This document shows, piece after piece, positions 20,804 through 48,867 of a DNA stretch of 64,000 bases. The translations under genes were made by a program, and so were the position numbers. The notes beneath the pieces were generated by a model. It made no database searches. It was not told where the DNA came from and saw only the letters and a program-made list of their open reading frames with translations. The DNA is from Escherichia phage ES17, in sequence record NC_070984.1. One strand, written 5' to 3'. Every line of letters begins with the position of its first letter. Position 1 is the first letter of the stretch.

Positions 20804-20813
<10 letters not shown>
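19914..20813 (-). CDS. P-loop kinase, dNMP-kinase-like, with N-terminal extension
   Basis: Walker A ILNGPPGCGKDT resembles T4 gene 1 dNMP kinase GxxxSGKDT. Confidence 0.5.
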
Positions 20814-22097
<1,284 letters not shown>

Positions 22098-30200: not shown

Positions 30201-30650
30201 TCAACTCTCTTCTAGTATAATCCTGTACATTGCTTCCTGAGCATCTTTCATATCTACATATGGACCAAGCACCTCACTATCTTTTCTGATGAACCAATCA
30301 CCTTCTTTGAATATCAGAGATACGTGAACATCTTTATTATTTGCTTTGACTGCTCGCCCCCATGCTGGGTTATGTCGGGATAAATTATCAATATGACAAT
30401 TATCAGTGCGCCCATCCAGATGGTGTAAATAAGATTGAGGCCACTGGCCTGTCTCTTTATACCATACGGCTTTCTTCAATTCAACAATGCCACATGGTAG
30501 TCCTATGTATAGGATATTAGGCTGTAAGCTAAAATTATACCACTTAGATGTGAAAGGGATTAGAGGTTCCCTTTTGGTGAAAAACATCGGCCCCTCTCGA
30601 ATGTATTCTAGACTATCTATACACTTCAAAATCTTTTCACTATAAAGCAT
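30201..30650 (-). CDS. HNH-family homing endonuclease-like protein
   Basis: HHLDGRTDNCHIDNL fits the HH.DG...N....NL HNH pattern. Confidence 0.5.
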   Translation of the reverse strand: MLYSEKILKCIDSLEYIREGPMFFTKREPLIPFTSKWYNFSLQPNILYIGLPCGIVELKKAVWYKETGQWPQSYLHHLDGRTDNCHIDNLSRHNPAWGRAVKANNKDVHVSLIFKEGDWFIRKDSEVLGPYVDMKDAQEAMYRIILEES

Positions 30651-31390: not shown

Positions 31391-31572
31391 TTACGCTCTC
31401 CAATTTCTTCGTAATGACACTCAGTAGTTAAGCAGTCTTTACAGATTGCTGTATAAACCCTGACGTTAGTAAATCGTTTGTTCTCCCCTTTGGTTGGAGA
31501 GCCTTTGGCAAGCTCTCTGATAACCTTGTTACTTAAATGAAGGTTTGTTCCTTCACATTTAGAGCACTTCAT
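31387..31572 (-). CDS. Zinc-ribbon mini-protein
   Basis: CSKCEG ... CKDCLTTECH four-Cys arrangement. Confidence 0.4.
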   Translation of the reverse strand: MKCSKCEGTNLHLSNKVIRELAKGSPTKGENKRFTNVRVYTAICKDCLTTECHYEEIGERK

Positions 31573-31888
31573 GGTTCATATCTTTATGAATCCTGTAAAC
31601 AGCTGTCGCCATACAAGCAACAGCCTCGTTGTGTGGGAGGTGCATCCCTGTAGAACCATCCCAATCTTTGAACTCATTGTCAAAGACTCCGGTAGGCTCT
31701 GGATATAGAGCTTGCAGCTCCACTAGATCATTAGCAACTTGTTGCCATTTATCATCAGACCAGATAGGGTCATCCAACCAGTAATACAAATAGGAATGGA
31801 TGATCAATTGCTTTCTATGCCGATTGATTACTTCAGCGGGACTTATCTCACTTCCATTTGAAGTCCTAAATGTATTACTGTCAATCAT
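31559..31888 (-). CDS. Stand-alone protein resembling NAD-dependent DNA ligase domain Ia
   Basis: HSYLYYWLDDPIWSDDKWQQVANDLVELQALYPE vs LigA [34 protein letters not shown] (from memory). Confidence 0.35.
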   Translation of the reverse strand: MIDSNTFRTSNGSEISPAEVINRHRKQLIIHSYLYYWLDDPIWSDDKWQQVANDLVELQALYPEPTGVFDNEFKDWDGSTGMHLPHNEAVACMATAVYRIHKDMNHEVL

Positions 31889-32300: not shown

Positions 32301-32957
32301 TTAACTCTCCAAAGTTTTCTTCAGAGCTGCCCATGAGATTGGGTAGAGCTTAGCCATCTCTTCATCTACGGATTTAGCAAACACTCGAACTTCATATTGA
32401 GCGTGAGATGAGAGTCGCTGACGACACAACTCAAACCAGCCATACAAAGAACCAGTCCACACCCACTCAGTGATCATCCCCTGAGGAAGAACAAATCGAG
32501 CTTGCTCTGGTGCAATAAATTCAATCAACTTGTCATATGTTGCTAGAGAAGCTTCATATGCATCGTTAATTAACATTAATGCTTCAGCTCGCTCTCCGTC
32601 GATGAGTTGAATCCCTGAACCTGCATGGAGGTCCGAAGGTCTCGCAAAAATCTCTTTAGGGATGAAGACTTCAACTGCTCCATCTTTATACCGCCGGGAC
32701 ATTTCGTTCCACGAGAATCCAACCTGATGCTTGCCCAACTGTCTCGCAATTGCGATAGGTGCTTTGCATCGGAAACTGACTTGCGGGTGTCGGAATGGAG
32801 TACAGTGTTTTTCCCGTGCAAGGAAGTTGATAAGTTTTGTGTCTCTCTCATTTAAGTCACCTTCTCGAACAACACCGAAAGATACTCTAGCTGCATTGAC
32901 TACAGATTTGTCACTACCCATTGCTTCAATCAGTGTTGCTTGTAGTTGTTCGTTCAA
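32301..32957 (-). CDS. thyX: Flavin-dependent thymidylate synthase ThyX family, with altered RHR motif
   Basis: TPFRH..SFRCKAPIAIARQ ... SWNEMSRRY and EQARFVLPQG...AQYEVRV are ThyX-like; canonical RHR is KHQ here. Confidence 0.75.
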   Translation of the reverse strand: MNEQLQATLIEAMGSDKSVVNAARVSFGVVREGDLNERDTKLINFLAREKHCTPFRHPQVSFRCKAPIAIARQLGKHQVGFSWNEMSRRYKDGAVEVFIPKEIFARPSDLHAGSGIQLIDGERAEALMLINDAYEASLATYDKLIEFIAPEQARFVLPQGMITEWVWTGSLYGWFELCRQRLSSHAQYEVRVFAKSVDEEMAKLYPISWAALKKTLES

Positions 32958-33396
32958 TTAAAAGTTCCTTTTTTCGATTCATGTAAACTTGATGAGCTTC
33001 TTCGGCAGTTCCATACATACCTAGATGTATATCTACTTTATCAATACAAATAACAGCCCTATATCTAATAGTCCCTGATTTATATTTGACAACCTTAACA
33101 CCTTGAAGCCCTGTTTCCTTGTTTGATACCCTAGCCCCGAACTGGTTGTGGCAGTTTGTCGAGGTGTCCACCAATCTCAAGTTCTGTATTGAGTTGTTCT
33201 TCTTATTTCTATCGATATGGTCTATCTGAGAAGAAGGCCACTCTCCATAGTAAAAGAACCATGCCACTTTATGAGCTTTGTGTACTTTCCCTTTAAACCG
33301 CAGGGTTATGTACTTACTTCGAGTTCCTCCTAATTTCTTACCTTTTCGAAAGAACTCTCCAGTCTCAGGGATATACTCTAAATCATCGATTAACAT
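32926..33396 (-). CDS. HNH homing endonuclease with AP2-like DNA-binding domain
   Basis: QIDHIDRNKKNNSIQNL (HNH) plus YRAVICIDKVDIHLGMYGTAEEA (AP2-like). Confidence 0.75.
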   Translation of the reverse strand: MLIDDLEYIPETGEFFRKGKKLGGTRSKYITLRFKGKVHKAHKVAWFFYYGEWPSSQIDHIDRNKKNNSIQNLRLVDTSTNCHNQFGARVSNKETGLQGVKVVKYKSGTIRYRAVICIDKVDIHLGMYGTAEEAHQVYMNRKKELLIERTTTSNTD

Positions 33397-33661
33397 TCAG
33401 AGCTGTATCTAAAAATGCTTTCAGGTTTGCTTCAGTCTGCATACCAGAGAGGCTGTAGTGTGCACCACTGTTACGGTCAGGCACAACGAAAGCAGGGATA
33501 CTTCGTACACCATACTTAACAGCTTGTTCACGACCATCACCTTCAAGGATGTTAATCTCTTCCACTTCTACATCAAACTCCTTAACAACCTTCTCAAAGG
33601 TAGGAGCCATTGCTTTACATGGAGCACACTGATCACTATAAAACTTAATTACTTTAGGCAT
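33383..33661 (-). CDS. Thioredoxin-like protein
   Basis: 92 aa with SDQCAPCK redox motif in thioredoxin-fold position. Confidence 0.7.
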   Translation of the reverse strand: MPKVIKFYSDQCAPCKAMAPTFEKVVKEFDVEVEEINILEGDGREQAVKYGVRSIPAFVVPDRNSGAHYSLSGMQTEANLKAFLDTALNVNR

Positions 33662-33910: not shown

Positions 33911-34522
33911 TTAGTAAGACACGTCACCACTTGAATGGGACATGTTGCTCTTGACGAAGTAGCAATACTTGCCAAGACCTTCATTAATTTCTTGAAGCAT
34001 ACTCTGATCGACAGGGTAGGTGGCTAAATCACCATCAAACTCATCCATCTTCTCAATAATACACATCAAGGTCATGCACATATCAGAGAGCATACCGTCC
34101 ATGTCTAGATCAGCGTTACCCTCTGAGAACCAAGCATGAGAGAGGTAGTTAGCTGCTGTAGCATCCACTTTAACACAGTGGTAACGCATACGTTCAGCAA
34201 TACGATCTCCTACCTGTCGTGCGTAATCTTCCAGCTCATCAAACATACCATGAACACCCTGAAATCCTGCACCAGAGACGTTCCAGTGGTAGTTTTTAGC
34301 TTTGATATGCAAGAGTTCCATGTTAGCTTGTAAGCAGCTCAGGATGTGTTCTAGGCTGTTTGCACTAATCATGCCTTGCATTGTTTCAAGGCGAGAGATT
34401 GAAAGCTCAGACCGGTCTAACATACTATAACTGTCACGACCAATCTCAGGTAAATCAAAGACATTCTTATGCATTTGGGTTTTCTCCATCAAGTTCAACT
34501 GAATTAGCAACATTACGTGCAA
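33911..34522 (-). CDS. Dps / ferritin-like protein
   Basis: KNYHWNVSGAGFQGVHGMFDELEDYARQVGDRIAERM matches the Dps ferroxidase-site helix pattern. Confidence 0.65.
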   Translation of the reverse strand: MHVMLLIQLNLMEKTQMHKNVFDLPEIGRDSYSMLDRSELSISRLETMQGMISANSLEHILSCLQANMELLHIKAKNYHWNVSGAGFQGVHGMFDELEDYARQVGDRIAERMRYHCVKVDATAANYLSHAWFSEGNADLDMDGMLSDMCMTLMCIIEKMDEFDGDLATYPVDQSMLQEINEGLGKYCYFVKSNMSHSSGDVSY

Positions 34523-35754: not shown

Positions 35755-36264
35755 CTATCTTTCATCCACATTAAAGGATAGGTGAAGCCTACTTCTCATA
35801 GACTTCGCTAGGAGTTTTGCCTCTTCAAGAGTTTTCACTCCATATACAGACTCACGTTTACCATCTTTTTGAATAGATACACAGAATGTCCCGCCCTTCT
35901 CTTGGTAGACATTCTTAACTCCTAGTTTGTTATCAACCCTTGTCTTAGCATTCTGACTGTTCTCAGAGTGATAGCACTTTCTCAGGTTAGTTTCTTCTAG
36001 GTTTTCTCTGTTACCATCGGCATGATCTATTTGATATTCATCCGATAAATCCTCACCAGTATAAAGAACAAAAAGAATCCTATGATTGTGGACATGAACT
36101 CCTCCTAAGGGAATTTGATAATATCCATCTTTTGTGAGCTTGCCAGCAGGTTTACCTACTATATCATTAGCAAACTTACTAGGCTTCCTTTTCCAAGAAA
36201 GCCCTGAAGGTGATGACATGTCTATGTTAAAGAGATCAACTACTTCATCATAGCATATCAGCAT
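35755..36264 (-). CDS. HNH homing endonuclease with AP2-like domain
   Basis: YQIDHADGNRENLEETNL HNH motif; start placed at internal Met to avoid 128-nt overlap with dcd. Confidence 0.7.
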   Translation of the reverse strand: MLICYDEVVDLFNIDMSSPSGLSWKRKPSKFANDIVGKPAGKLTKDGYYQIPLGGVHVHNHRILFVLYTGEDLSDEYQIDHADGNRENLEETNLRKCYHSENSQNAKTRVDNKLGVKNVYQEKGGTFCVSIQKDGKRESVYGVKTLEEAKLLAKSMRSRLHLSFNVDER

Positions 36265-36802
36265 GATTTGTTCCACCAAAAGCTTTTGTTGGCCCTTGTT
36301 GGTTATTATATGAACCTTTCGTTGCGTAGCTGTCCTCTTCGGATGAAGAGTGTTTAAAGAATTCCATTTGACCAATACGCATTCCCGGTTTGATCAGCAG
36401 AGAGTGATGCTGTAGAACATTCTTGAATTCCATAGTTAACTGGCTACCATGCCAACCGCCGTCAGCATGACCAGCGTGCATGTGCTCTAAGAAACAACGA
36501 CCAACAGTGGACCGTAGCATGAAATCGCAGCTAATATTATCTGGCAGATTGAATGTCTCCATTGTATGAGCCAAGAAACACTCACCCGGTTTGATCACTA
36601 ACCCTTCCTCTGGAATCATAACCTCATTGAAGTTAGGAGATTCTTTAGCAGAGATATCAACAACCCCGTTAGCTGCACCTTCCATTAGAACGCGATCTCC
36701 AATACGAACATCAATGCTGGAGGAATTAACAGCTGAGTGTGGTGCATCAATAACACCATCATCAATTAATTTATGTAACTCTGGACTTCCTAGTAAACTC
36801 AT
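36248..36802 (-). CDS. dcd: dCTP deaminase (dUTPase superfamily)
   Basis: 184 aa; SSIDVRIGD ... GHADGGWHGSQLTMEF ... GMRIGQMEF matches Dcd pattern. Confidence 0.7.
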   Translation of the reverse strand: MSLLGSPELHKLIDDGVIDAPHSAVNSSSIDVRIGDRVLMEGAANGVVDISAKESPNFNEVMIPEEGLVIKPGECFLAHTMETFNLPDNISCDFMLRSTVGRCFLEHMHAGHADGGWHGSQLTMEFKNVLQHHSLLIKPGMRIGQMEFFKHSSSEEDSYATKGSYNNQQGPTKAFGGTNHADML

Positions 36803-36811
36803 TCTTATTCC

Positions 36812-38182
36812 TTAGTTATTTGTTTCCATGTCAAAAGAGATTCCACGACCCGCTTCATCGGCAAACCGAACTGTACGGGTTTGAGGTTCTAATACTTCAG
36901 GGTTGTTAGCAATAAAGCGATCAGCGAGACTATCTCCCAAATCTTGTTCCATACCTTCATCAGTCCAGATAACACGAGAAGGGGCGTTGATATCACCAAC
37001 AGCGAAACCCTGACCAGAGAACTGACGTGCGCTAACAGTTAAGCCGTTTGGTCGACCACGAGAGGGTCTAGCCATCCATCGCTCCATAGAATCACTTGTA
37101 ATACCAAGAGCTTCTTCAAAAGATGTTCTACGAGTAGGGCTTTCTCTTCGTGACTCTTGTGCTCGACGCATTGCAGGGGCTACAAACACCCCTTCAATTG
37201 CATTGTGTCGGTTAGGTTCCTCTTCTCGACCAAGCAGATCACCACCCGTGTTAGTCGTTAAATTTGTCAACCCCTCAGACCAATACGCATGAATCTGACC
37301 AGAACCGTGAAGACTAGACATAATCTGAATCTCTTCATAAGGGATTCCAAAGAATCGACTCATGTCTCGGTTAACACAATATAGAGCACTTGTTGTATCT
37401 TCAATAAGAGAAACCTGACCTAATCCATTGACTAGATGACTAACTGGCTGAGGTGTGGGAAGATATCGAGTTTGGGCCATGTATTGATGCGCAACTGCTG
37501 GAGAGGAAAATCTCAACACTTGTGAGTTAGGCCACTTCTTGTGAACATACCTGATTTCACGACTAGAGACAACCACTGGACAAGGGGAAGTCATAGCCAA
37601 ATATCCGTGAGAAGTCATGAATAAGTTGTCAAGAGTCATCGCACCACGGCACATCATAGGAAAATTATCCAATACCTCTTCAATAGAAGTAGGATAATTA
37701 AACATGAATTGGATACGAACCCCATTCCACTGAAACTCAATAATATCAGTGAATGTTAATTGAGAACCCCCAGCATAGGATTCGTTTGTAGCTTCAGCAA
37801 GAAGTGATGCATATTCAATATCTTGTGACTCTAGCCATTCCTTCACATTACTTTCAATCTCCCGTCCAAGCTCTTGCCAACGATCAGTTGGGATGAAAGT
37901 GTTTTGAGTTCTTGGTGTTTGTCCTCTGACAATAAAGATATCAATGTCATGTGGAGCTATGTTATTAAGGACAGCATCACGAACAGCCCCACCAGTAATG
38001 ATGGGACAGATACCATCTGGAATCAAGTTGTTGTTAATCAACTGTTCAATGAAGTGACGACCAACAGTGATATCAGGTTGTTGAGCAACCTTATCTTCAA
38101 TTTGGTTAATCGGGATAACAATCATTTTACATTTTCCAATATAATGAAGGTGGGTCGTAAGGGTCAAATCCCGTGAGTTCAC
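36812..38182 (-). CDS. Class II nucleotidyltransferase (CCA-adding / poly(A) polymerase head-domain family)
   Basis: [23 protein letters not shown] = GGxVRD ... DxD motif; start likely internal near 38125. Confidence 0.55.
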
Positions 38183-40494: not shown

Positions 40495-40698
40495 TTAGTA
40501 GAACGAACGAATTTCATCCCACACTTGTTCCTGTTCTTTCCTATAAAAAGAAAGTTGGGTCTTGAACATCTCCACTGATGATTCAAAGTTTTTGGTTTGT
40601 GCAGCTTCAACGAAACGTTCATGTCGGTTGATTTTGCACCGTAGCATTAAATACTTGGCTTCAAGTCTCCGAAGAGCCTGCCTTTTCTCAAGATTCAC
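40495..40698 (-). CDS. Hypothetical protein
   Basis: 67 aa track ORF. Confidence 0.3.
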   Translation of the reverse strand: MNLEKRQALRRLEAKYLMLRCKINRHERFVEAAQTKNFESSVEMFKTQLSFYRKEQEQVWDEIRSFY

Positions 40699-41107
40699 TT
40701 TTCAGATACTCTGACCAGTCGCCAGATTCAACCAGAATATCTTGTTCTTCGTCGATATGATAAATCCAAGCGATAACAGTTTCACCTGAGTCCATCTTAA
40801 CAGCAATCTGAGTACGCTGATAGAAGCTGTCTTCAGGGCTACGTTTGTTGTAACCTTCCAGACGGTCATACGGACCTTCCAGACCTGCTTTGTCAGTAGC
40901 AAACACTTCTACACGAACAGGCTTATTGTTATTGCTGTGTGCGAGAGAGATGCTCGGGAAGTAGGAACCACCGTAACGGAACAGATCGAAGTTGTCTTCA
41001 GTCCAACCTTCACCAATTGACTTAGCACCAGCTCGGTCATTAACTAAATAGTTAGCTTGACCACGACGAAGAGAACCATAAGTTGCTACGTAAATTACTT
41101 CTGACAT
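40688..41107 (-). CDS. Gamma-glutamyl cyclotransferase-like (AIG2/GGCT fold) protein
   Basis: YVATYGSLRRGQANY N-terminal signature plus ...YDRLEGY...YQRTQIAV...VIAWIYH. Confidence 0.65.
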   Translation of the reverse strand: MSEVIYVATYGSLRRGQANYLVNDRAGAKSIGEGWTEDNFDLFRYGGSYFPSISLAHSNNNKPVRVEVFATDKAGLEGPYDRLEGYNKRSPEDSFYQRTQIAVKMDSGETVIAWIYHIDEEQDILVESGDWSEYLKSES

Positions 41108-41176
41108 TATCTATACCTTTGTTGGTTTGTTTAGTTTATCCGAACTAGCCTCATCTTTCGAAGAGGCTAAAGCAGA

Positions 41177-41362
41177 TTACTCTGTAATAAAGATTTTGAT
41201 TACACCGCAGATTGCTGCACTTTCAAACACTGCAACAGCTTCACTTCCTTGAAAGAAGGCCACTTTGCCATCAGAGAAGTTAAACATGTCAGCATCGAGG
41301 TCCATTGCTCGCATCTCACCAGCTGCATTGGTATCTTTAAACAGAACTTTATACTTATTCAC
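41177..41362 (-). CDS. Hypothetical protein
   Basis: 61 aa track ORF. Confidence 0.3.
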   Translation of the reverse strand: MNKYKVLFKDTNAAGEMRAMDLDADMFNFSDGKVAFFQGSEAVAVFESAAICGVIKIFITE

Positions 41363-41607
41363 AGATATGTTACTCCCTTGTCTTGTTGTGCTTCAGTGAT
41401 GATACGCTCTACACATTCCATAGAGTACTTATCACCACGTTTTAGGAAAGTTACAATTGCAGAGAATTGATTACCAATCATTCGCTGATTAGTAATACCC
41501 AACTCCTCACACAATTTACGCAACTCTTTACGAGAGCCTACAATAAGAGGCTCTTTTTGTTCCATCATTCCATTTTGTACTAGATCTTCCAATGAAAACA
41601 TATCCAT
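41359..41607 (-). CDS. Hypothetical protein
   Basis: 82 aa track ORF. Confidence 0.3.
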   Translation of the reverse strand: MDMFSLEDLVQNGMMEQKEPLIVGSRKELRKLCEELGITNQRMIGNQFSAIVTFLKRGDKYSMECVERIITEAQQDKGVTYL

Positions 41608-41613
41608 ATATCC

Positions 41614-42816
41614 TTAGTAGTTTACAACAGTGCCATCATTCAGGGTAAGGTTATTAATCTGCAACACACGACCAAGCTGACGATCACTAATTGGTGCGTT
41701 CCATCCAGAGCGGTAGAAGTTACGACCACAGAAGAACAAGATCACATTACTTGCTACAGTTGAACCATTTTCAGGATGCTTGATGTTAGCGATATAATAA
41801 CCACGACGCAGATTACGACGGGTTACAGGGTTGATCTCTAACCCTTGCTCTTCAACCTGCATTATTTCAGGGACAGGCTCCGAAGACTCTTCAACAACTG
41901 GCTCGGAGCTTTCCGCTGATAGTGCGTAATCCTCATCACCTGCTGGTGAAAATGTTTCTTCCACTTCTTCCACGGGAAGTTCGTATGCAACACGGTAGTC
42001 AGGCTCAACACCAGAGAAGCTCTTAACAAACTCAACGATGTTGTGAGTGTAGGTTTCCAGAGTTGTGCCAGTCAGGCCCGGAGCTGTATTAACTTCCAGA
42101 ACCCAAGCGTTAGTACCTTTGCTAATCAGGTCAACAGCACCGAAGTTCAAACCCAGAGCAGATACAGCTTTGTGAGCTTGAATCAGAACTTGATCAGGAG
42201 GCGCTTCAGTGAAGGAGTTAGAATAAACCCAACCAGTATGATGGTTACGAATATCTTCACGATAGCTTTCCAGTTCACGATAACCATTACGACGAATCTT
42301 CTTCTGAACGTAAGTGATAACACCTTCGAACACATGAACACGCCATTCACGACGTGGGCCTTGGATGCCTTTGGTGTACAGAGGAGCATCCGCAACACCT
42401 TCTCGCGGAAGACGAACAGTGATCCCCTCACCAGAGTGACCAGTCAAGGTTGCACGTTCATAAACAATTTCATTCCGGTTCCAGTTCTGAGCTACTTCAC
42501 GATCTACGGTGTATTCAACAGTTTTGACTTCAGCTAAACGCAGTGCGTTAAATGCTGCAACTTTGTTAGCGGCTCGGTTCAAGGCAACCACAGAGTTCAA
42601 TACAGTTGCACCGCCAAAGAAAGAATCATTATATCGACGGTTTCCGTAGTTGACAACAATATCACCAACTCGAGAACGATAACGAGAACCCTCTGATACC
42701 AGAGACATTACGTTAGCATTTAGTCGAAGTTCCTGAATCTTAGTGTTAATTGCAGAAGTAAGTTCACGAACTGAATCAGAAGGGCCATAAGGAAGAACAC
42801 GGATACGAGTAGTCAT
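41614..42816 (-). CDS. ATP-grasp enzyme
   Basis: C-terminal AVDLISKGTNAWVLEVNTAPGLTG matches ATP-grasp E-x-N Mg/ATP-binding motif. Confidence 0.6.
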   Translation of the reverse strand: MTTRIRVLPYGPSDSVRELTSAINTKIQELRLNANVMSLVSEGSRYRSRVGDIVVNYGNRRYNDSFFGGATVLNSVVALNRAANKVAAFNALRLAEVKTVEYTVDREVAQNWNRNEIVYERATLTGHSGEGITVRLPREGVADAPLYTKGIQGPRREWRVHVFEGVITYVQKKIRRNGYRELESYREDIRNHHTGWVYSNSFTEAPPDQVLIQAHKAVSALGLNFGAVDLISKGTNAWVLEVNTAPGLTGTTLETYTHNIVEFVKSFSGVEPDYRVAYELPVEEVEETFSPAGDEDYALSAESSEPVVEESSEPVPEIMQVEEQGLEINPVTRRNLRRGYYIANIKHPENGSTVASNVILFFCGRNFYRSGWNAPISDRQLGRVLQINNLTLNDGTVVNY

Positions 42817-42818
42817 TG

Positions 42819-43043
42819 TTAGATACCTTTAAGTTTAAGAATTTCGTTACGAGTTTTTTGAATCTGAGCTTCAATTTCGAAGTAGTCATTGAACGCATCG
42901 TTCTCTACTTCATCGGATGGTGCATCAATCAGACCGAAAGCGAACGGATACAGCTTTCGCTGCTCCGTTACCAATTCGATATGAACTCCTATGTAATACT
43001 GTAGGAGAGTAATCTTCGGTTTCTTAGGAACCAGATTTGACAT
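42819..43043 (-). CDS. Hypothetical protein
   Basis: 74 aa track ORF inside operon. Confidence 0.3.
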   Translation of the reverse strand: MSNLVPKKPKITLLQYYIGVHIELVTEQRKLYPFAFGLIDAPSDEVENDAFNDYFEIEAQIQKTRNEILKLKGI

Positions 43044-43257
43044 GAGGTTCTACCTTAATGCCTTTGATTTTTACATAATCAGCAAGCACGTTGTTGATCA
43101 CCGTTGGGAAAGGAACCTCAACCTGTGTTTCAAGTACTTGACCAATACCAGCTTGCATCCACTTCTGGATTGCACGAAGGTTATCACATCCTGTGCTCGT
43201 CATCGGGATACGTCGAGTAGTTACAACGTTATCCAGCATCATCTTACGAATTTCCAT
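43024..43257 (-). CDS. Hypothetical protein
   Basis: 77 aa track ORF inside operon. Confidence 0.3.
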   Translation of the reverse strand: MEIRKMMLDNVVTTRRIPMTSTGCDNLRAIQKWMQAGIGQVLETQVEVPFPTVINNVLADYVKIKGIKVEPHVKSGS

Positions 43258-43259
43258 AC

Positions 43260-45290
43260 TTAACCTCTATTCAATGAACATTTAGGAGAATTACAATAAA
43301 CTTGATTCATAGAACCAAGCGTACAACTTTCAGCATCGCGCCACGGAATCTGCTTAAAACACTCTGAGCAGTATCCGAGGGTTGACCACATTGCTTTGGT
43401 GAAGTCAGTGCTTCGGTTTCCGTCGAAGCTGACGACAGTTTTGCGGAGAGCTGTTCGTGATTCAGGAAACACACCTGCTTTCTCAGCAGGTTCCTCCTTT
43501 TTTGGCTTAGTTGAGATTGCAAAAATACTGTTGCTACGTTTCTCAACATAAGCATCAACAACATCCTCCAGAGTGATGCCTGTCTGTTTCGCTGAGGAAG
43601 GTAATACAGTCATACGACCGATCATATCTTCAGTTACACGTAAAGCGAATTCAGGACGACGGGCGTTTGTTGTATCTGTTGCTTTAATCCAGACATAACC
43701 ATCTTTGATCGTAGCATTAGACACTTTCTTCTTTACTTCTACAGCGCAGACTTTACAGATATCTTCACCACGAAGACGACTAAGTTCATCATCGAACTCA
43801 TTCTCTGTTTTAACTTCACCGCAGATTTCACAAACACCAATAGGAGTTTCCTCCTCTTCTTCCTCTTTAGGTTTAGTCAAACCTTCCAGACATTCAGGAT
43901 GCCAATAGCACTGATATGCGAAGACTGCTTTAGGTGCATCCTTCCAATCAATGTGCTTATCACAACCACCACAATCACCATGAGAGTGCGCTTCCCAGAA
44001 TTTACGAGTGATAGTAACACCATTCTTGTTGACGAAACTATCATTCATATCAAAAGGGATATCATCATCGAAGTCAGCAGTAGTTGACTCAGGCTCCTTT
44101 TTCTCCAGAGATGGGTCAACAAAACGACCTGCTGTGATCACTAAACGGACCATAGCATTGACTTCGGAGATGCAGGATACTGTCCCACGGTAAACAATTT
44201 TAGGGTCTTTCAGGGCATCCTGATAAGCCTTAATGTCTACGTTATGAACATCACCTTCGATATACTCTTGAGATTTCTCATCGTAGATATAACCAATCAT
44301 CTTACCACGAGAAGGAACAGCACCGGCAGTTGCATAAGGAACAAACTCATGCGGAGTGATTTCCACAGTCATATCGCGGCGAATATCAATGTTTCGATCG
44401 CTTGCGATTTTGTTTTGACTTACCACTGCGTTTCTTCGACGAACGTCTGCCGCTGTCACACCCGGCTTCGTGTCGTAAGGATTGCTTGTACTGCTTTTTG
44501 AGGAACTTTGATAGTTGCTTTGGCTGTAATTGTTCGAGTAGTAATTGCCCCAACGATTGACTACCGTAAAAACCGGAAGCTCGTGGGCGACCTCTTCAAC
44601 CAGTGTCATGCTGTTATTAGACATGTCAAAGATATACTCTGTACCAACTTTACACTCAAAATGCTCATCAATACGGTTCTTGTGAGACTTCGAACGCTTC
44701 AGAATCCACATCAGCATATCTTCTTCAGAAGCGCCAAACCAATCTCTGTTACAACGTGCGAGATGGAAAGGACGCTCTTCGTTACGAATGATATGAAGGC
44801 GGTTATCAGAAGCATCATGCCAGATTAAGGTGAAAGCACCATCCAGCTTTTGAATAGTCTCTGCTGCACCAATAGTGTTAATAGAGTGGCAGATGTTCTC
44901 ACTATCTACCTCGAAGTTTTTACTGTCAGGTAACAGGTCTTGGTCCATCAAGGTTCCATTATGAACCAGAGTGATGTTACCATGTTGGAAAGGATGGGCG
45001 TTCTTGGCGTTAACTGCACCTTTCGTTGCATGACGGCTGTGACCAACAATCCATGAAGGTGCTACAGTGTAAGCTGTTTCACCAGTGGTGTGCTTCTTGT
45101 ACTCATCTTGTAGGATGAATGCGAAAGAAGGAAGAGCTTCTTTATAAGTGAAGACTTCCTTAGTACTTTTACGCTGACCAAAGATACCGGAGGAATGTTG
45201 TCCTCGGAATACTCCAGCATAAAAGAGTTGGTTAAATACGTCTAAATCAGTGCTTGACAGATTACCGCCAGCTAATACGATGCCACAAAT
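43260..45290 (-). CDS. Class-II (Ntn) glutamine amidotransferase domain fused to Cys-rich C-terminal region; apparent ATT initiation
   Basis: Frame open 113 codons upstream of track start; begins ATT-TGT: (I)CGIVLAGG, VFRGQHSSGIFG, VGHSRHATKG..NAHPF, LVHNGTL are GAT-II hallmarks; C-terminus has 4 CxxC pairs. Confidence 0.75.
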   Translation of the reverse strand: MCGIVLAGGNLSSTDLDVFNQLFYAGVFRGQHSSGIFGQRKSTKEVFTYKEALPSFAFILQDEYKKHTTGETAYTVAPSWIVGHSRHATKGAVNAKNAHPFQHGNITLVHNGTLMDQDLLPDSKNFEVDSENICHSINTIGAAETIQKLDGAFTLIWHDASDNRLHIIRNEERPFHLARCNRDWFGASEEDMLMWILKRSKSHKNRIDEHFECKVGTEYIFDMSNNSMTLVEEVAHELPVFTVVNRWGNYYSNNYSQSNYQSSSKSSTSNPYDTKPGVTAADVRRRNAVVSQNKIASDRNIDIRRDMTVEITPHEFVPYATAGAVPSRGKMIGYIYDEKSQEYIEGDVHNVDIKAYQDALKDPKIVYRGTVSCISEVNAMVRLVITAGRFVDPSLEKKEPESTTADFDDDIPFDMNDSFVNKNGVTITRKFWEAHSHGDCGGCDKHIDWKDAPKAVFAYQCYWHPECLEGLTKPKEEEEEETPIGVCEICGEVKTENEFDDELSRLRGEDICKVCAVEVKKKVSNATIKDGYVWIKATDTTNARRPEFALRVTEDMIGRMTVLPSSAKQTGITLEDVVDAYVEKRSNSIFAISTKPKKEEPAEKAGVFPESRTALRKTVVSFDGNRSTDFTKAMWSTLGYCSECFKQIPWRDAESCTLGSMNQVYCNSPKCSLNRG

Positions 45291-45293
45291 TTT

Positions 45294-45323
45294 CTAATCC
45301 ACCTGAAGGGTAAACCCTTTCAT
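45294..45323 (-). other. 9-codon upstream mini-ORF (MKGFTLQVD) ending 3 nt before GAT-II ATT codon
   Basis: ATG 45323 with AAAGG RBS; in-frame TAG at 45294-45296, then AAA, then ATT-TGT. Confidence 0.35.
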
Positions 45324-45369
45324 CTAATTAACCTTTAAATTGTGCCCCTTTATCAGAGGCACCCATTGA

Positions 45370-46473
45370 TTACAGCGCTTGCTCTAACTGATTTTCCAGA
45401 TGGTCTGGAATGTACCCTGTGATATTGCTATCACTGTGACCTGACTCACGTAGTAAGTCAAAAATAGCACGGATACGCTGTTCTGGAGCGTGTCTTACTT
45501 GAGATAGGTCTGCTGTACGAAGCATAACCAAAATCTCTTGGTACAAGTTGTTAGCGTTCCCTCGGACATACCCAAGGAAGCCATAGAAGTCTGACATAAG
45601 ACGTAAGTCAACAAGAGCCTCTCCGTTGGAGTTGGTTCGACGTAAACGAATACGACCAGACTGTTCTACTTCATGAGAACGGCAATACAAAACATCACGG
45701 GCCATACAATATCCTGAATGCAAATCAGATTCATCCAGATTGTAATCCAGAGGAAGGTAAGGAAGCATTGGGGCAAATCGTACAGTATTTAAGTGCTCAA
45801 TAAACTGATCATTGCTCATATCTGCGTTATCTAAAGCCAGCTTCTTCAACATCAAGAAGCGGTTAACCAGATTGAGAAGTTGACCACGTTTCCACTTAGG
45901 CTCACTGATACGGAACTCAATTGAACCGTATTGGGCAAGTGGCAGAAGGTTCAGAGATGTATATTTATCCCATGAACGAACCAGACGGTTGAAGAATTCT
46001 TCACCATCGTAGTTAAATGCGTCAGAGGCATTCATTACCTGTGCTTGTACCACTGCAAACGCAGGGCAGAAATTGCTACGGTAACGATGGTAGCCTGAAC
46101 ACTTGAACAGCATCTTTTCATAGAAGGTCCAAGCAAGGATGGTCTTCTTGAGGATATTACTATCAGCATCCCTCATATCCATATGAACGTGAGTAGAGCA
46201 ACGCCAAGTCCCCTCGGCGTGCGATTCAGCTACTGCTTCACTCAGGTTGTTGATAGCGTCTAACAACTCCTGTCCGTTGTAAGGTCGTGAACATACCATT
46301 TCACAACCGTTACGCAGGGAACCATCCTCTGTGCAATCCCACATATCTGCTTCGATATGTTCAGAACCTTCGAGTTCAAGTTCAATACCGACACCGCACT
46401 GAAGTGCAATTGAACTATGCGCCTCAGTTAAACGACCTTCTCGATATCCAAAAGTTTGCGCTACAGTTGTCAT
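45370..46473 (-). CDS. Glutamine-synthetase/GCS2-like amidoligase (carboxylate-amine ligase)
   Basis: GIELELEG, EDGSLRNGCE, THVHMD, GSIEFR motif series. Confidence 0.5.
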   Translation of the reverse strand: MTTVAQTFGYREGRLTEAHSSIALQCGVGIELELEGSEHIEADMWDCTEDGSLRNGCEMVCSRPYNGQELLDAINNLSEAVAESHAEGTWRCSTHVHMDMRDADSNILKKTILAWTFYEKMLFKCSGYHRYRSNFCPAFAVVQAQVMNASDAFNYDGEEFFNRLVRSWDKYTSLNLLPLAQYGSIEFRISEPKWKRGQLLNLVNRFLMLKKLALDNADMSNDQFIEHLNTVRFAPMLPYLPLDYNLDESDLHSGYCMARDVLYCRSHEVEQSGRIRLRRTNSNGEALVDLRLMSDFYGFLGYVRGNANNLYQEILVMLRTADLSQVRHAPEQRIRAIFDLLRESGHSDSNITGYIPDHLENQLEQAL

Positions 46474-47087
46474 AACGAATCCACCAACGTAATATTATAA
46501 TTGCTAAGGTTTTCAGAGATGTGATGAAAATGCTCCAGAAGTCGCATCGGTTGTTGACCATAAGAGTCACGAGGTGCTTCCAGATCTACCTGACCTACCA
46601 GTGCACCTTTATAATGCACTTTACCATCTGTAGGATTGATGTAAATATAACGAGTAACCAATCCATCAAATTCAGGATTGAACAGACTGTAAACCATTTC
46701 ACCAGAGATCGAACGACCAATTCCAGGAGCGTTTCGAATCTTGTTACCCATCAAACCCTTCGCTCTCTGACGAACAGGGTTGATATGAGTCCAGCTTACA
46801 GTGTTACCGTTATGGAACAGATAACCAACATCAGGTGATTCAAGAATCAAGGTTGGGTCGAACACTGGAATATTCATCGTAGTGTTTCGGAGATTCCCAT
46901 GCTCGTTCTTGTACCACTGCTCTACAACAAAATACAGAGCCTGTTCTGCTTCATGCGAGAAGTCATCGCTGCGGAAGTTACCGCTCTGCTCAACACCAAT
47001 CACAAAACACGGAAGGTTGATATTGCCTGCTCGTTTAGCAATCCATGTACCATTATAGTAATGAGAAAAATCAGCTACTAAGCTCAC
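46470..47087 (-). CDS. Hypothetical protein in amidoligase operon
   Basis: 205 aa; start overlaps upstream stop. Confidence 0.35.
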   Translation of the reverse strand: MSLVADFSHYYNGTWIAKRAGNINLPCFVIGVEQSGNFRSDDFSHEAEQALYFVVEQWYKNEHGNLRNTTMNIPVFDPTLILESPDVGYLFHNGNTVSWTHINPVRQRAKGLMGNKIRNAPGIGRSISGEMVYSLFNPEFDGLVTRYIYINPTDGKVHYKGALVGQVDLEAPRDSYGQQPMRLLEHFHHISENLSNYNITLVDSL

Positions 47088-47096
47088 GATAACCTC

Positions 47097-47903
47097 TTAT
47101 GCTACCTGAAGGAGTTTGATCTGCTGGTCAGCTTCTTTAACGTTGTTCCCGTTAATGATTTCATGAAGCTTCTCAATCGGAAGGCGAGAGTGCAATGCCA
47201 TCAGGGTGGACATATCACACTGCTGAACAACCTTGTCAACCTGATCGTAAACAAACTTACGGTTTTCACGATCACTAATCCAGAAGTTAGACAGAGAACG
47301 GTATTCAATACCATAGTCTTTATAACGGATTGCAGATGCTTTACCGTAGAGTTCTTTACGGCGAGTATCTTTGTCCATAATTACTGCTGGGAGAGACAGG
47401 AAGTAGTCACACAACACACCCAGCATCATCTGAGTTTGCAGAGTGATATCCAAAGCACCAACTACGCCAAGATGTACGTGACCACCGGCAGTACGAAGTC
47501 CCTTATTCTGAGAAGTCGGGGATGGGTTTTTCTGACCAGTGAAGGCGTTGAAATCAGGAGTGCACCCGAAGATGAACGCTGATTCATTAAAGGTCTTCAT
47601 TTCTTCTTCGGTGAAGATGTGAGAGCTAACACCCGGAGCTGTTTCCATGTCCAGTTTGTTCAGGACATTATTGGTAAGATCGATACCACGTTGCATGTTA
47701 TCGTTAAACGCTTCAAAACCGCTCTGTGGGTCGATATCAAACTCAGCCAGTACGTTGTCCTCTTGAAGACGAACATCTTTAGCCAGAGTGATCTTATCGT
47801 CCTTAGAACAGCCTAATAGACCAGCTACAGAGGTGATGATACCATTACTGGTACGAACGAACATTTCAGGGTCAGAGCCGATAAGGAATTTGCGCTTAGT
47901 CAT
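47097..47903 (-). CDS. Second GS-like amidoligase (COOH-NH2 ligase type)
   Basis: IGSDPEMF, AEFDIDP, TAGGHVHLG, GIEYRS motif series. Confidence 0.45.
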   Translation of the reverse strand: MTKRKFLIGSDPEMFVRTSNGIITSVAGLLGCSKDDKITLAKDVRLQEDNVLAEFDIDPQSGFEAFNDNMQRGIDLTNNVLNKLDMETAPGVSSHIFTEEEMKTFNESAFIFGCTPDFNAFTGQKNPSPTSQNKGLRTAGGHVHLGVVGALDITLQTQMMLGVLCDYFLSLPAVIMDKDTRRKELYGKASAIRYKDYGIEYRSLSNFWISDRENRKFVYDQVDKVVQQCDMSTLMALHSRLPIEKLHEIINGNNVKEADQQIKLLQVA

Positions 47904-48867
47904 TGTAATACTCCACTAGTTCAGAAAAGAGAGATGAGATTGTGTTACCAACTTCTTCAGGAGTAAGACCGGAATCTTCTCCAGTTCTTTGAATCAGTCG
48001 GGCTATAAAGTTTTGTACTGTAATGTTTCCCAACTTGTCGTCTATGGTTTCACGTTTATGACCATGACAAGTGGACCAGAGTCTTAGCCACTCTGACATT
48101 GTTGCATATTCAGCTGGGTCTTGATCTTTAGCAAGAGCAAATCTTCGTAAGGTCTCTGGGTTATGGTTACGAACATAGCCGTTCTCATTGTAACCAACAC
48201 CAAAAGGGTTTTGAACCCATACTTGATTCGTGTATTCATCAGAGTCTACAACCAAAGGAAGGAATGCTGATGCTGGCATATTGTAGTTAATAACAATAGA
48301 TGTGCTCTCACTGCTCCCATTGGATCTTCCTTGTTGAGTCCACCCTCCAAAGAAGTCACGACCCAACCCAGCTAACACTAGAGCGATGCCGATGCGTTTA
48401 CGCTTCAGCCACTCTTCCCTGTCTTCAATTCCTTCTGCTAGGAAATCCATTCCACGATACTGCCCTTCCAGAATGCTACGGAAGAGCATAAGTCCTGTGA
48501 AGATCTGATCTGCTGGATGCTCACGAAGGTTGACAGCAACACTATTCGCTGAAGTGATCGTAAATACGTCACGATAGCAAGACATGGAGTTCATAATGTC
48601 TGCTGTTTCAACTAAGTTCTTTTCGATATCAGATGTAACATGACCGTGAAAAGAGTGAGTCCAGTAATTCAACATCTCCAGTTGCAAGTTGATATCACGG
48701 TTGAAGCTACGATAGCGCCCTTCTTCCGTGATAACTTCACCATTAATGTCATTTACCCACTGGCCTTGCATGTGGTTGTGGATACCGAAGCACCCACGAC
48801 CTAAGAACTTCTGTTCCCCTAAATCCTGTTGAAGATTCAGAGGTACGATCGTTGTGGAGATTGACAT
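47896..48867 (-). CDS. Hypothetical protein in amidoligase operon
   Basis: 323 aa, overlaps neighbours by 8 nt. Confidence 0.35.
   Translation of the reverse strand: MSISTTIVPLNLQQDLGEQKFLGRGCFGIHNHMQGQWVNDINGEVITEEGRYRSFNRDINLQLEMLNYWTHSFHGHVTSDIEKNLVETADIMNSMSCYRDVFTITSANSVAVNLREHPADQIFTGLMLFRSILEGQYRGMDFLAEGIEDREEWLKRKRIGIALVLAGLGRDFFGGWTQQGRSNGSSESTSIVINYNMPASAFLPLVVDSDEYTNQVWVQNPFGVGYNENGYVRNHNPETLRRFALAKDQDPAEYATMSEWLRLWSTCHGHKRETIDDKLGNITVQNFIARLIQRTGEDSGLTPEEVGNTISSLFSELVEYYND

Follow-up and report, generated by a model that had tools for sequence, protein, structure and literature searches.

K-H-Q in place of R-H-R: the predicted flavin-dependent thymidylate synthase of Escherichia phage ES17 and the subfamily that shares its signature

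Described ThyX enzymes and the ES17 gene

In the flavin-dependent thymidylate synthases (ThyX) of M. tuberculosis and H. pylori, the R-H-R triplet mainly hydrogen-bonds FAD, and only its first Arg makes further contacts, with the isoalloxazine and dUMP (PMC6514825). For the T. maritima enzyme (FDTS, TM0449; PDB 1O26, 1KQ4 and mutants), Basta et al. list R78, R80, S88 and R90 as direct hydrogen-bonders of dUMP (PMC3498832). The original prediction for ES17 had assumed that the RHR arginines contact the dUMP phosphate. Contact with dUMP is upheld for the first Arg and for T. maritima R78 and R80, whereas the main partner of the triplet in the M. tuberculosis and H. pylori enzymes is the flavin. 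PBCV-1 A674R (PDB 2CFA) is a biochemically characterised viral ThyX, whose S88-Q89-R90 numbering reflects the canonical motif spacing and whose Gln89, at the x of S-x-R-Y, is able to occupy the pocket that binds the dUMP phosphate (PMC3498832). According to PMC10142491, this enzyme may boost dTTP for an A+T-rich genome in a G+C-rich host. PolB of Streptomyces cacaoi (PDB 4P5A/B/C), encoded in an antibiotic gene cluster, is a ThyX homologue that methylates both UMP and dUMP and thus a precedent for substrate drift in the ThyX fold. In PolB, Glu94' and Arg86, the latter being the first Arg of RHR, bind the ribose O3', Arg193 and Arg98' recognise the base, and the listed phosphate contacts include Ala97'. 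Its specificity is ascribed to Tyr99, to Tyr124 and Tyr126 of Loop 1, which forms a substrate gate, and to Loop 2, not to the RHR triplet (PMC5003785).

The window, that is, the whole 64,000-nt stretch of ES17 DNA analysed, comes from a Kuravirus-type E. coli podophage (Gordonclarkvirinae; phiEco32/SU10 group), and the 4 kb around thyX share 96–99% identity with phages including YW01, TH38, myPSH2311 and SU10. The encoded protein matches the Pfam family Thy1 (PF02511) from end to end (residues 8–206 on profile positions 1–190 of 191, E=4.3e-43), with a score of 147.8 bits (cut-off 24.8). It also reaches 129.3 bits on the NCBIfam thyX equivalog TIGR02170, for which the curated cut-off is 87.9. 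An AlphaFold2 model computed from a 73-sequence alignment has a pLDDT of 91.3 and a pTM of 0.86. When this model was searched against the PDB with Foldseek, the top 50 matches were all ThyX with TM scores of about 0.8, including 0.81–0.82 to T. maritima ThyX at 30–34% identity. In line with the phmmer matches to solved ThyX, these results bear out the original assignment to the ThyX family. Reverse-strand and overlapping ORFs within the same interval were judged to be spurious shadows of thyX.

The gene starts with TTG, where the SU10 orthologue has ATG, and reading of the sequence places AAGGAA, a good Shine-Dalgarno motif, 7 nt upstream. Compared with SU10 thyX, 39 synonymous and 17 non-synonymous differences give a dN/dS of 0.107, pointing to purifying selection, and thyX is present across the Gordonclarkvirinae. 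A protein family labelled 'thymidylate synthase', PHROG 28804 (91 aa), corresponds to residues 128–218 of ES17 ThyX, the C-terminal part only; thus, some relatives are annotated with a split or truncated thyX.

The HNH gene next to thyX (Table 1) overlaps its first 32 nt; SU10 and most relatives, which align with 89% coverage, lack it. It is one of three free-standing HNH_3 homing-endonuclease-like ORFs, all on the minus strand; the others lie by dcd (35755..36375) and by phoH (30201..30650). Two genes upstream of thyX, a ferritin/Dps-like ORF (33911..34522, minus; Pfam Ferritin, E=2.9e-07) is annotated in relatives as a ferric-iron-binding or DNA-binding protein.

Table 1. Features of the ES17 thyX region, in positions of the window
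Feature	Position	Strand	Basis
Predicted thyX, flavin-dependent thymidylate synthase, K-H-x/S-R-R-Y subfamily	32301..32957	minus	218 aa, TTG start
Extended ThyX motif A71-RQLG-K76-H77-Q78-VGF-S82-WNE-M-S87-R88-R89-Y90	32688..32747	minus	Aligned to chains of T. maritima and T. thermophilus; almost no variation among 120 homologues
Codons K76-H77-Q78 in place of canonical R-H-R	32724..32732	minus	Direct read, reverse complement AAG CAT CAG
Codon R88, extra Arg of S-R-R-Y, candidate compensating phosphate ligand (inferred)	32694..32696	minus	R in 86/92 subfamily representatives
Codons D109–S114 (DLHAGS), clade-specific variant of the [KR]-Q-G-S loop, approximate position of PolB Loop 1	32617..32634	minus	Alignment
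Codon R154 = T. maritima R147 (dUMP phosphate ligand), conserved	32496..32498	minus	Alignment
Codon R181 = T. maritima R174 (uracil O4/N3-reading Arg), conserved	32415..32417	minus	Alignment; invariant in alignments A1–A3
Free-standing HNH homing-endonuclease gene between trx and thyX, not part of the enzyme	32926..33396	minus	Pfam HNH_3, E=1.6e-13
Thioredoxin gene, directly upstream of thyX in relatives without the homing-endonuclease insertion	33383..33661	minus	Pfam Thioredoxin, E=1.9e-13; SU10 gene order
dCTP deaminase gene (dcd), upstream supplier of deoxyuridine nucleotides	36248..36802	minus	Pfam DCD, E=4.5e-32; TIGR02274 equivalog, 101 bits vs 92.8

Register of the signature and active-site residues

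A phmmer comparison with PDB sequences aligns the ES17 segment ARQLGKHQVGFSWNEMSRRY with ARQWFRHRIA-SYNELSGRY of T. maritima and ARQWFRHRTA-SVNEISGRY of T. thermophilus, which confirms the earlier reading that KHQ stands at the position of RHR. In native T. maritima numbering (with the 12-residue tag of the PDB construct subtracted), K76, H77 and Q78 of ES17 correspond to R78, H79 and R80, S82 to S83, E85 to E86, S87 to S88, R88 to G89, R89 to R90, Y90 to Y91, R154 to R147 and R181 to R174. RHR was looked for elsewhere in the 218 residues and is absent; the sole R-H, in R56-H57-P58, aligns with T. maritima E58-H59. Two further changes had escaped the original prediction: the triplet lies one residue further from the first motif Ser (VGF vs IA), and an additional Arg turns S-x-R-Y into S-R-R-Y. 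Where the literal signature is R-H-R-x7-S (RHRxxSxxxxSxR), the ES17 protein therefore reads K-H-Q-x3-S-x4-S-R-R, differing by the K, the Q and the additional residue.

The T. maritima enzyme shares fold and length class with ES17 ThyX, and its Q75, E86, S88, R90, Y91, E144, R147, R174 and H53 all have equivalents there. Unlike the phage protein, it has R78-H79-R80, S-G-R-Y and no extra residue before S83, and its R143 and R165 are replaced in ES17 by P150 and Y172. T. thermophilus Thy1/ThyX (PDB 6J61) is the best sequence match among solved structures (phmmer E=1.7e-30, residues 8–215). It shares the motif block with ES17 apart from the changes already described, and differs in having RHR, S-G-R-Y, K-Q-A-S in the loop and one more domain at the C terminus. 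PBCV-1 A674R, from a eukaryotic virus, falls into the same Pfam family but is only distantly related (E=8.6e-08). PolB matches with E=2.2e-16, and its nucleotide contacts map onto residues that are conserved in ES17.

Taking residue roles from PMC5003785 and PMC6514825, the dUMP-contacting residues of T. maritima (R74, Q75, R78, E86, S88, R90, Y91, R147 and R174) become R72, Q73, K76, E85, S87, R89, Y90, R154 and R181 in ES17. The sole change among the uracil, ribose and phosphate contacts of solved ThyX and PolB complexes is the conservative replacement of R78 by K76. H51 (T. maritima H53) and E151 (E144) are conserved as well. Ligands of the FAD phosphates are not kept: the second RHR Arg is Q78, and T. 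maritima R165 (M. tuberculosis R190) is Y172. ES17 further has E176 where most of the subfamily described below has Arg. We had considered loss of the R165 equivalent as a diagnostic character and dropped it. RHR-type T. thermophilus ThyX lacks this Arg too, so the FAD-phosphate ligands are not strictly defining; it is also missing from the RHR-type ThyX of Pseudomonas phage P3.

By position, the phosphate contacts correspond to T. maritima R74/Q75, S88/G89/R90 and R147. R88 of ES17 falls at the site of T. maritima G89, PBCV-1 Gln89 and PolB Ala97. The lost residue (R80 to Q78) lies at a position that varies freely across the subfamily, and the gained R88 lies at the phosphate pocket. From these alignments, we infer that the subfamily may have moved a phosphate-binding Arg from the triplet to the S-x-R-Y loop. 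Among 92 subfamily representatives, the correlation between loss of the second triplet Arg and gain of R88 is strong but imperfect and confounded by phylogeny. The idea that G89 to R88 fully compensates for the lost second Arg is weakened by the combinations KHQ/SMRY, KHQ/SLRY, KHQ/SGRY and RHR/SRRY.

A second departure concerns the loop near PolB Loop 1. Other subfamily representatives carry the loop K in 84/92, the loop Q in 88/92 and R104 in 85/92 cases, whereas in the Kuravirus/7-11/Chaseviridae/Aeromonas-phage clade R...[KR]-Q-G-S reads F...H-A-G-S, with F104. Matched to PolB by position, Y90 of ES17 equals Tyr99, and the loop stretch at about residues 108–122, DLHAGSGIQLIDGER, contains no Tyr. 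The loop change is not diagnostic, since T. maritima ThyX, a proven dTMP synthase, is without the KQGS motif too.

The K-H-x/S-R-R-Y branch in phages and bacteria

K-H-Q is found in 120 of 121 sequences when ES17 ThyX is taken together with its 120 closest database homologues (54–89% identity), the exception being a single K-S-Q, and in these homologues it is embedded in an almost invariant ARQLxKHQxGFSWNExSRRYKD block. Such uniformity argues that KHQ did not arise by chance. A wider HMMER search of 1.84 billion protein cluster representatives returned 6836 ThyX-like clusters, and about 145 of the best 150 carry [KR]-[HS]-x-[VI]-G-x3-[NS]-E-x-S-R-R-Y. We refer to this group, defined in the present analysis, as the K-H-x/S-R-R-Y subfamily. 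Residues were counted in the 92 representatives of normal length among the best 150 of the 6836. The triplet is KHQ in 44 of them and RHR in exactly one, and its third position is Q, K, T, H, V, E, M, N, I, C or R. S-R-R-Y occurs in 84/92, the three-residue spacing in 85/92 and P150 in 78/92. ES17 ThyX has all four subfamily features, namely [KR]-[HS]-x, three residues before the first Ser, S-R-R-Y and P-E-x-A-R. Judged from these alignments, KHQ is a subfamily trait and not a local mutation or lesion.

KHQ, KHK or KHE together with N-E-x-S-R-R-Y recurs in named ThyX of unrelated phage families at 35–54% identity, including the T5-like Vibrio phage Ceto, rV5-like CB7, N4-like Nepra and MY01, the Zobellviridae phage ICBM3, CRP-9, the Barba phages and PMBT3. 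RHR returns in ThyX of actinophages, cyanophages and Pseudomonas phage P3. Intermediates exist, as a cellular ThyX of Petrotogaceae joins RHR with the insertion and S-R-R-Y. In a rough neighbour-joining tree without support values, the K-H-x/S-R-R-Y sequences form one cluster apart from the RHR types, within which phage and cellular sequences interleave. No member of the subfamily occurs among the PDB matches, which are all of the RHR type at about 30–34% identity, and no biochemical characterisation of one was found in the literature searched. Within the 6836 clusters, five ThyX of Aeromonas-phage type and Kuravirus-clade type (P0122, P0135, P0204, P0258 and P0265) bear HNH-containing inteins exactly inside the motif, between F and S/C of KHQxGF/[SC]WNE (Cys1 ... 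VVHN/S, the slash marking the junction).

The signature is not confined to phages. One genome per GTDB species was scanned with KHQ-specific patterns from our close alignment A2, a procedure biased towards KHQ plus G[FL][SV]WNE, and 43 KHQ-type loci were recovered. Some of these look like prophages or phage contigs, while several consist of a single thyX among large housekeeping genes, with gene order kept across independent MAGs of the same phylum. In a Spirochaetia chromosome of 1.79 Mb, thyX lies between citrate synthase/aldo-keto reductase/SDR genes and pyrD with a fused pyrF-pyrE gene. The Chloroflexota gene comes after those for 2-oxoacid dehydrogenase E1alpha/E1beta/E2, the Nitrospinota gene sits between an AcrB/HlyD efflux pair and ispH/mlaA, and the Poribacteria gene between an enolase-superfamily gene and an aminotransferase gene. 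These chromosomal proteins (Spirochaetia L015, Nitrospinota L022, Poribacteria L033 and Chloroflexota L019) share K-H-Q, the extra residue, S-R-R-Y and P-E-Q-A-R with ES17 ThyX at 40–46% identity and score equally on TIGR02170. Unlike the phage protein, they keep the R...K-Q-G-S loop and R176 and are cellular housekeeping genes. On present sequence evidence, the branch is large and mostly phage-borne but also cellular.

When the Nitrospinota and Spirochaetia proteins were used as queries, almost all matches were metagenomic. Their relatives are extremely numerous in marine metagenomes (at least 8000 candidates), many of them on contigs of about 43 kb. These contigs suggest an abundant phage group as a reservoir and recent transfer from phage to cell.

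The textbook signature RHRx7S has been treated as universal and has served as a filter in at least one evolutionary study, in which Stern et al. (2010) removed sequences with more than two dissimilar residues relative to RHRX7S (PMC2826268). The signature fails for this entire branch, which is common among proteobacterial phages, reaches very high abundance in marine metagenomes and is chromosomal in several bacterial phyla. The KHx branch can be viewed as a natural experiment in how ThyX can rewire its binding sites for the nucleotide and flavin phosphates, with a bearing on inhibitor design and motif-based annotation.

Predicted role and competing explanations

The ES17 ORF very probably encodes a working flavin-dependent thymidylate synthase of a subfamily with a rewired signature, serving the ordinary conversion of dUMP to dTMP in phage dTTP supply. 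The expected reaction would be dUMP + CH2-THF + NADPH -> dTMP + THF. In this signature, [KR]-[HS]-x takes the place of R-H-R, an extra residue precedes the first Ser, and S-R-R-Y replaces S-x-R-Y. K76 would retain the positive charge that the first Arg applies to the ribose O3' and the flavin. The second triplet Arg appears dispensable in the subfamily, since the third position varies freely, and its charge is probably replaced by that of R88, which lies at the edge of the pocket for the dUMP phosphate. ThyX would then act downstream of the phage dCTP deaminase, in a route leading from dCTP via dUTP and host Dut to dUMP and dTMP, and could raise dTTP supply for a genome replicating in a host of 51% G+C. 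With the phage genome at 42% G+C, extra dTTP is a sufficient rationale for carrying thyX, in parallel with the argument put forward for PBCV-1 (PMC10142491). As KHQ is normal in a large branch of the ThyX family, present in many phages and on ordinary bacterial chromosomes, ES17 ThyX most likely just makes dTMP.

The original prediction had raised an altered substrate preference, for example towards a modified pyrimidine. This suggestion is not supported: KHQ is the consensus of a very large subfamily, is chromosomal in four phyla and occurs with the base-reading residues intact in a window containing no recognisable base-modification genes. A related proposal looks instead to the Kuravirus clade. 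Gordonclarkvirinae are reported to be markedly resistant to restriction-modification systems with no known modification pathway (PMC11990801), and a neofunctionalised ThyX could explain this by placing a non-canonical pyrimidine nucleotide in phage DNA, either 5-hydroxymethyl-dUMP, formed when water captures the exocyclic-methylene intermediate, or a product of dCMP or UMP methylation. If true, it would be the first ThyX-based DNA modification pathway. In its favour, the clade lost the [KR]-Q-G-S loop and R104 at the position of the substrate-gating Loop 1 of PolB, which is itself a case of substrate shift in a ThyX homologue (PMC5003785); SU10 has an annotated dNMP kinase; and 34 EcoRV sites in the window mean that site loss does not explain the resistance. 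However, KHQ occurs in housekeeping cellular ThyX, ES17 still has both arginines that read uracil, R181 and R89, along with all positions invariant in the subfamily, and the proven dTMP synthase of T. maritima has no KQGS loop either. When another 30 ORFs from the replication/metabolism arm were compared with Pfam, none matched ThyA, DHFR, a glycosyltransferase, a methyltransferase or any other known enzyme of base modification that could act downstream. We therefore consider this proposal unlikely, and very unlikely in the form in which the clade with KHQ and the lost R...K-Q-G-S gate loop releases, for instance, 5-hydroxymethyl-dUMP from the methylene intermediate, whose incorporation into DNA accounts for the resistance.

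The restriction sites of the window also speak against globally modified DNA. Relative to first-order Markov simulations, several C- and T-containing sites are strongly avoided in the 64,000 nt, with 7 CCWGG observed against 86 expected, 0 CTGCAG against 17.6 and 1 GGATCC against 9.9. GATC (136 against 252), GAATTC (7 against 20.7) and GGCC (60 against 113) are avoided too, while GATATC (34 against 16) and CAGCAG (80 against 36) are enriched. Site avoidance of this kind is a feature of phages with restriction-exposed DNA, not of phages with globally modified bases. The strong avoidance indicates that the phage DNA can be cut by restriction enzymes; phiEco32 DNA was restriction-profiled and subcloned to map its termini (PMC9965538). 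DNA containing dU has been speculated for Gordonclarkvirinae from the presence of a dCTP deaminase and a nucleotidyltransferase (PMC11990801). For PBS1-like dU-DNA, a dCTP deaminase together with absent or blocked dTMP synthesis would be expected; in ES17 an intact thyX lies 3.3 kb from dcd. A thyX that is intact, under purifying selection and close to the deaminase gene argues against replacement of T by dU.

Two other explanations concern the enzyme rather than the DNA. ES17 ThyX could make dTMP with altered cofactor handling, such as loosely bound FAD or the use of FMN, since several of the basic residues that bind the FAD phosphates, equivalent to R80 and R165, are missing. The triplet and R190/R165 hydrogen-bond FAD in the M. 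tuberculosis and H. pylori enzymes (PMC6514825), where ES17 has Q78 and Y172, and E176 replaces the Arg of most of the subfamily. Yet T. thermophilus and phage P3 ThyX do without the R165 equivalent despite their RHR triplets, basic residues shift freely in this region across the family, and ES17 has R179, which makes such a change in cofactor handling improbable. That the gene is a decaying or non-catalytic remnant, carried without an enzymatic role, might be read from the broken canonical signature and from the fragment annotations of relatives reflected in PHROG 28804. We regard this as extremely improbable for a full-length gene present across the Gordonclarkvirinae, with a dN/dS of 0.107, a confident structural model (pLDDT 91.3) and catalytic positions that are invariant over hundreds of sequences.

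Several other ORFs of the window, all on the minus strand, deserve mention. The 456-aa 'nucleotidyltransferase' by dcd (36812..38182), invoked by the BASEL paper for possible DNA modification, has no Pfam match at E<=1e-3. A 130-aa ORF (20804..21196) shows a weak match, below the gathering score, to the YspA/SLOG nucleotide-binding family. A phiEco32-type cluster at about 40688..48867 comprises genes for a gamma-glutamyl cyclotransferase (GGACT), a glutamine amidotransferase, an Amidoligase_2 protein and a COOH-NH2 ligase, as well as several ORFs without a Pfam match. Finally, a stand-alone 109-aa ORF (31559..31888), labelled 'DNA ligase' in relatives, comprises the N-terminal NAD-binding Ia domain of a LigA-type DNA ligase and nothing else (Pfam Nlig-Ia, E=3.9e-35).
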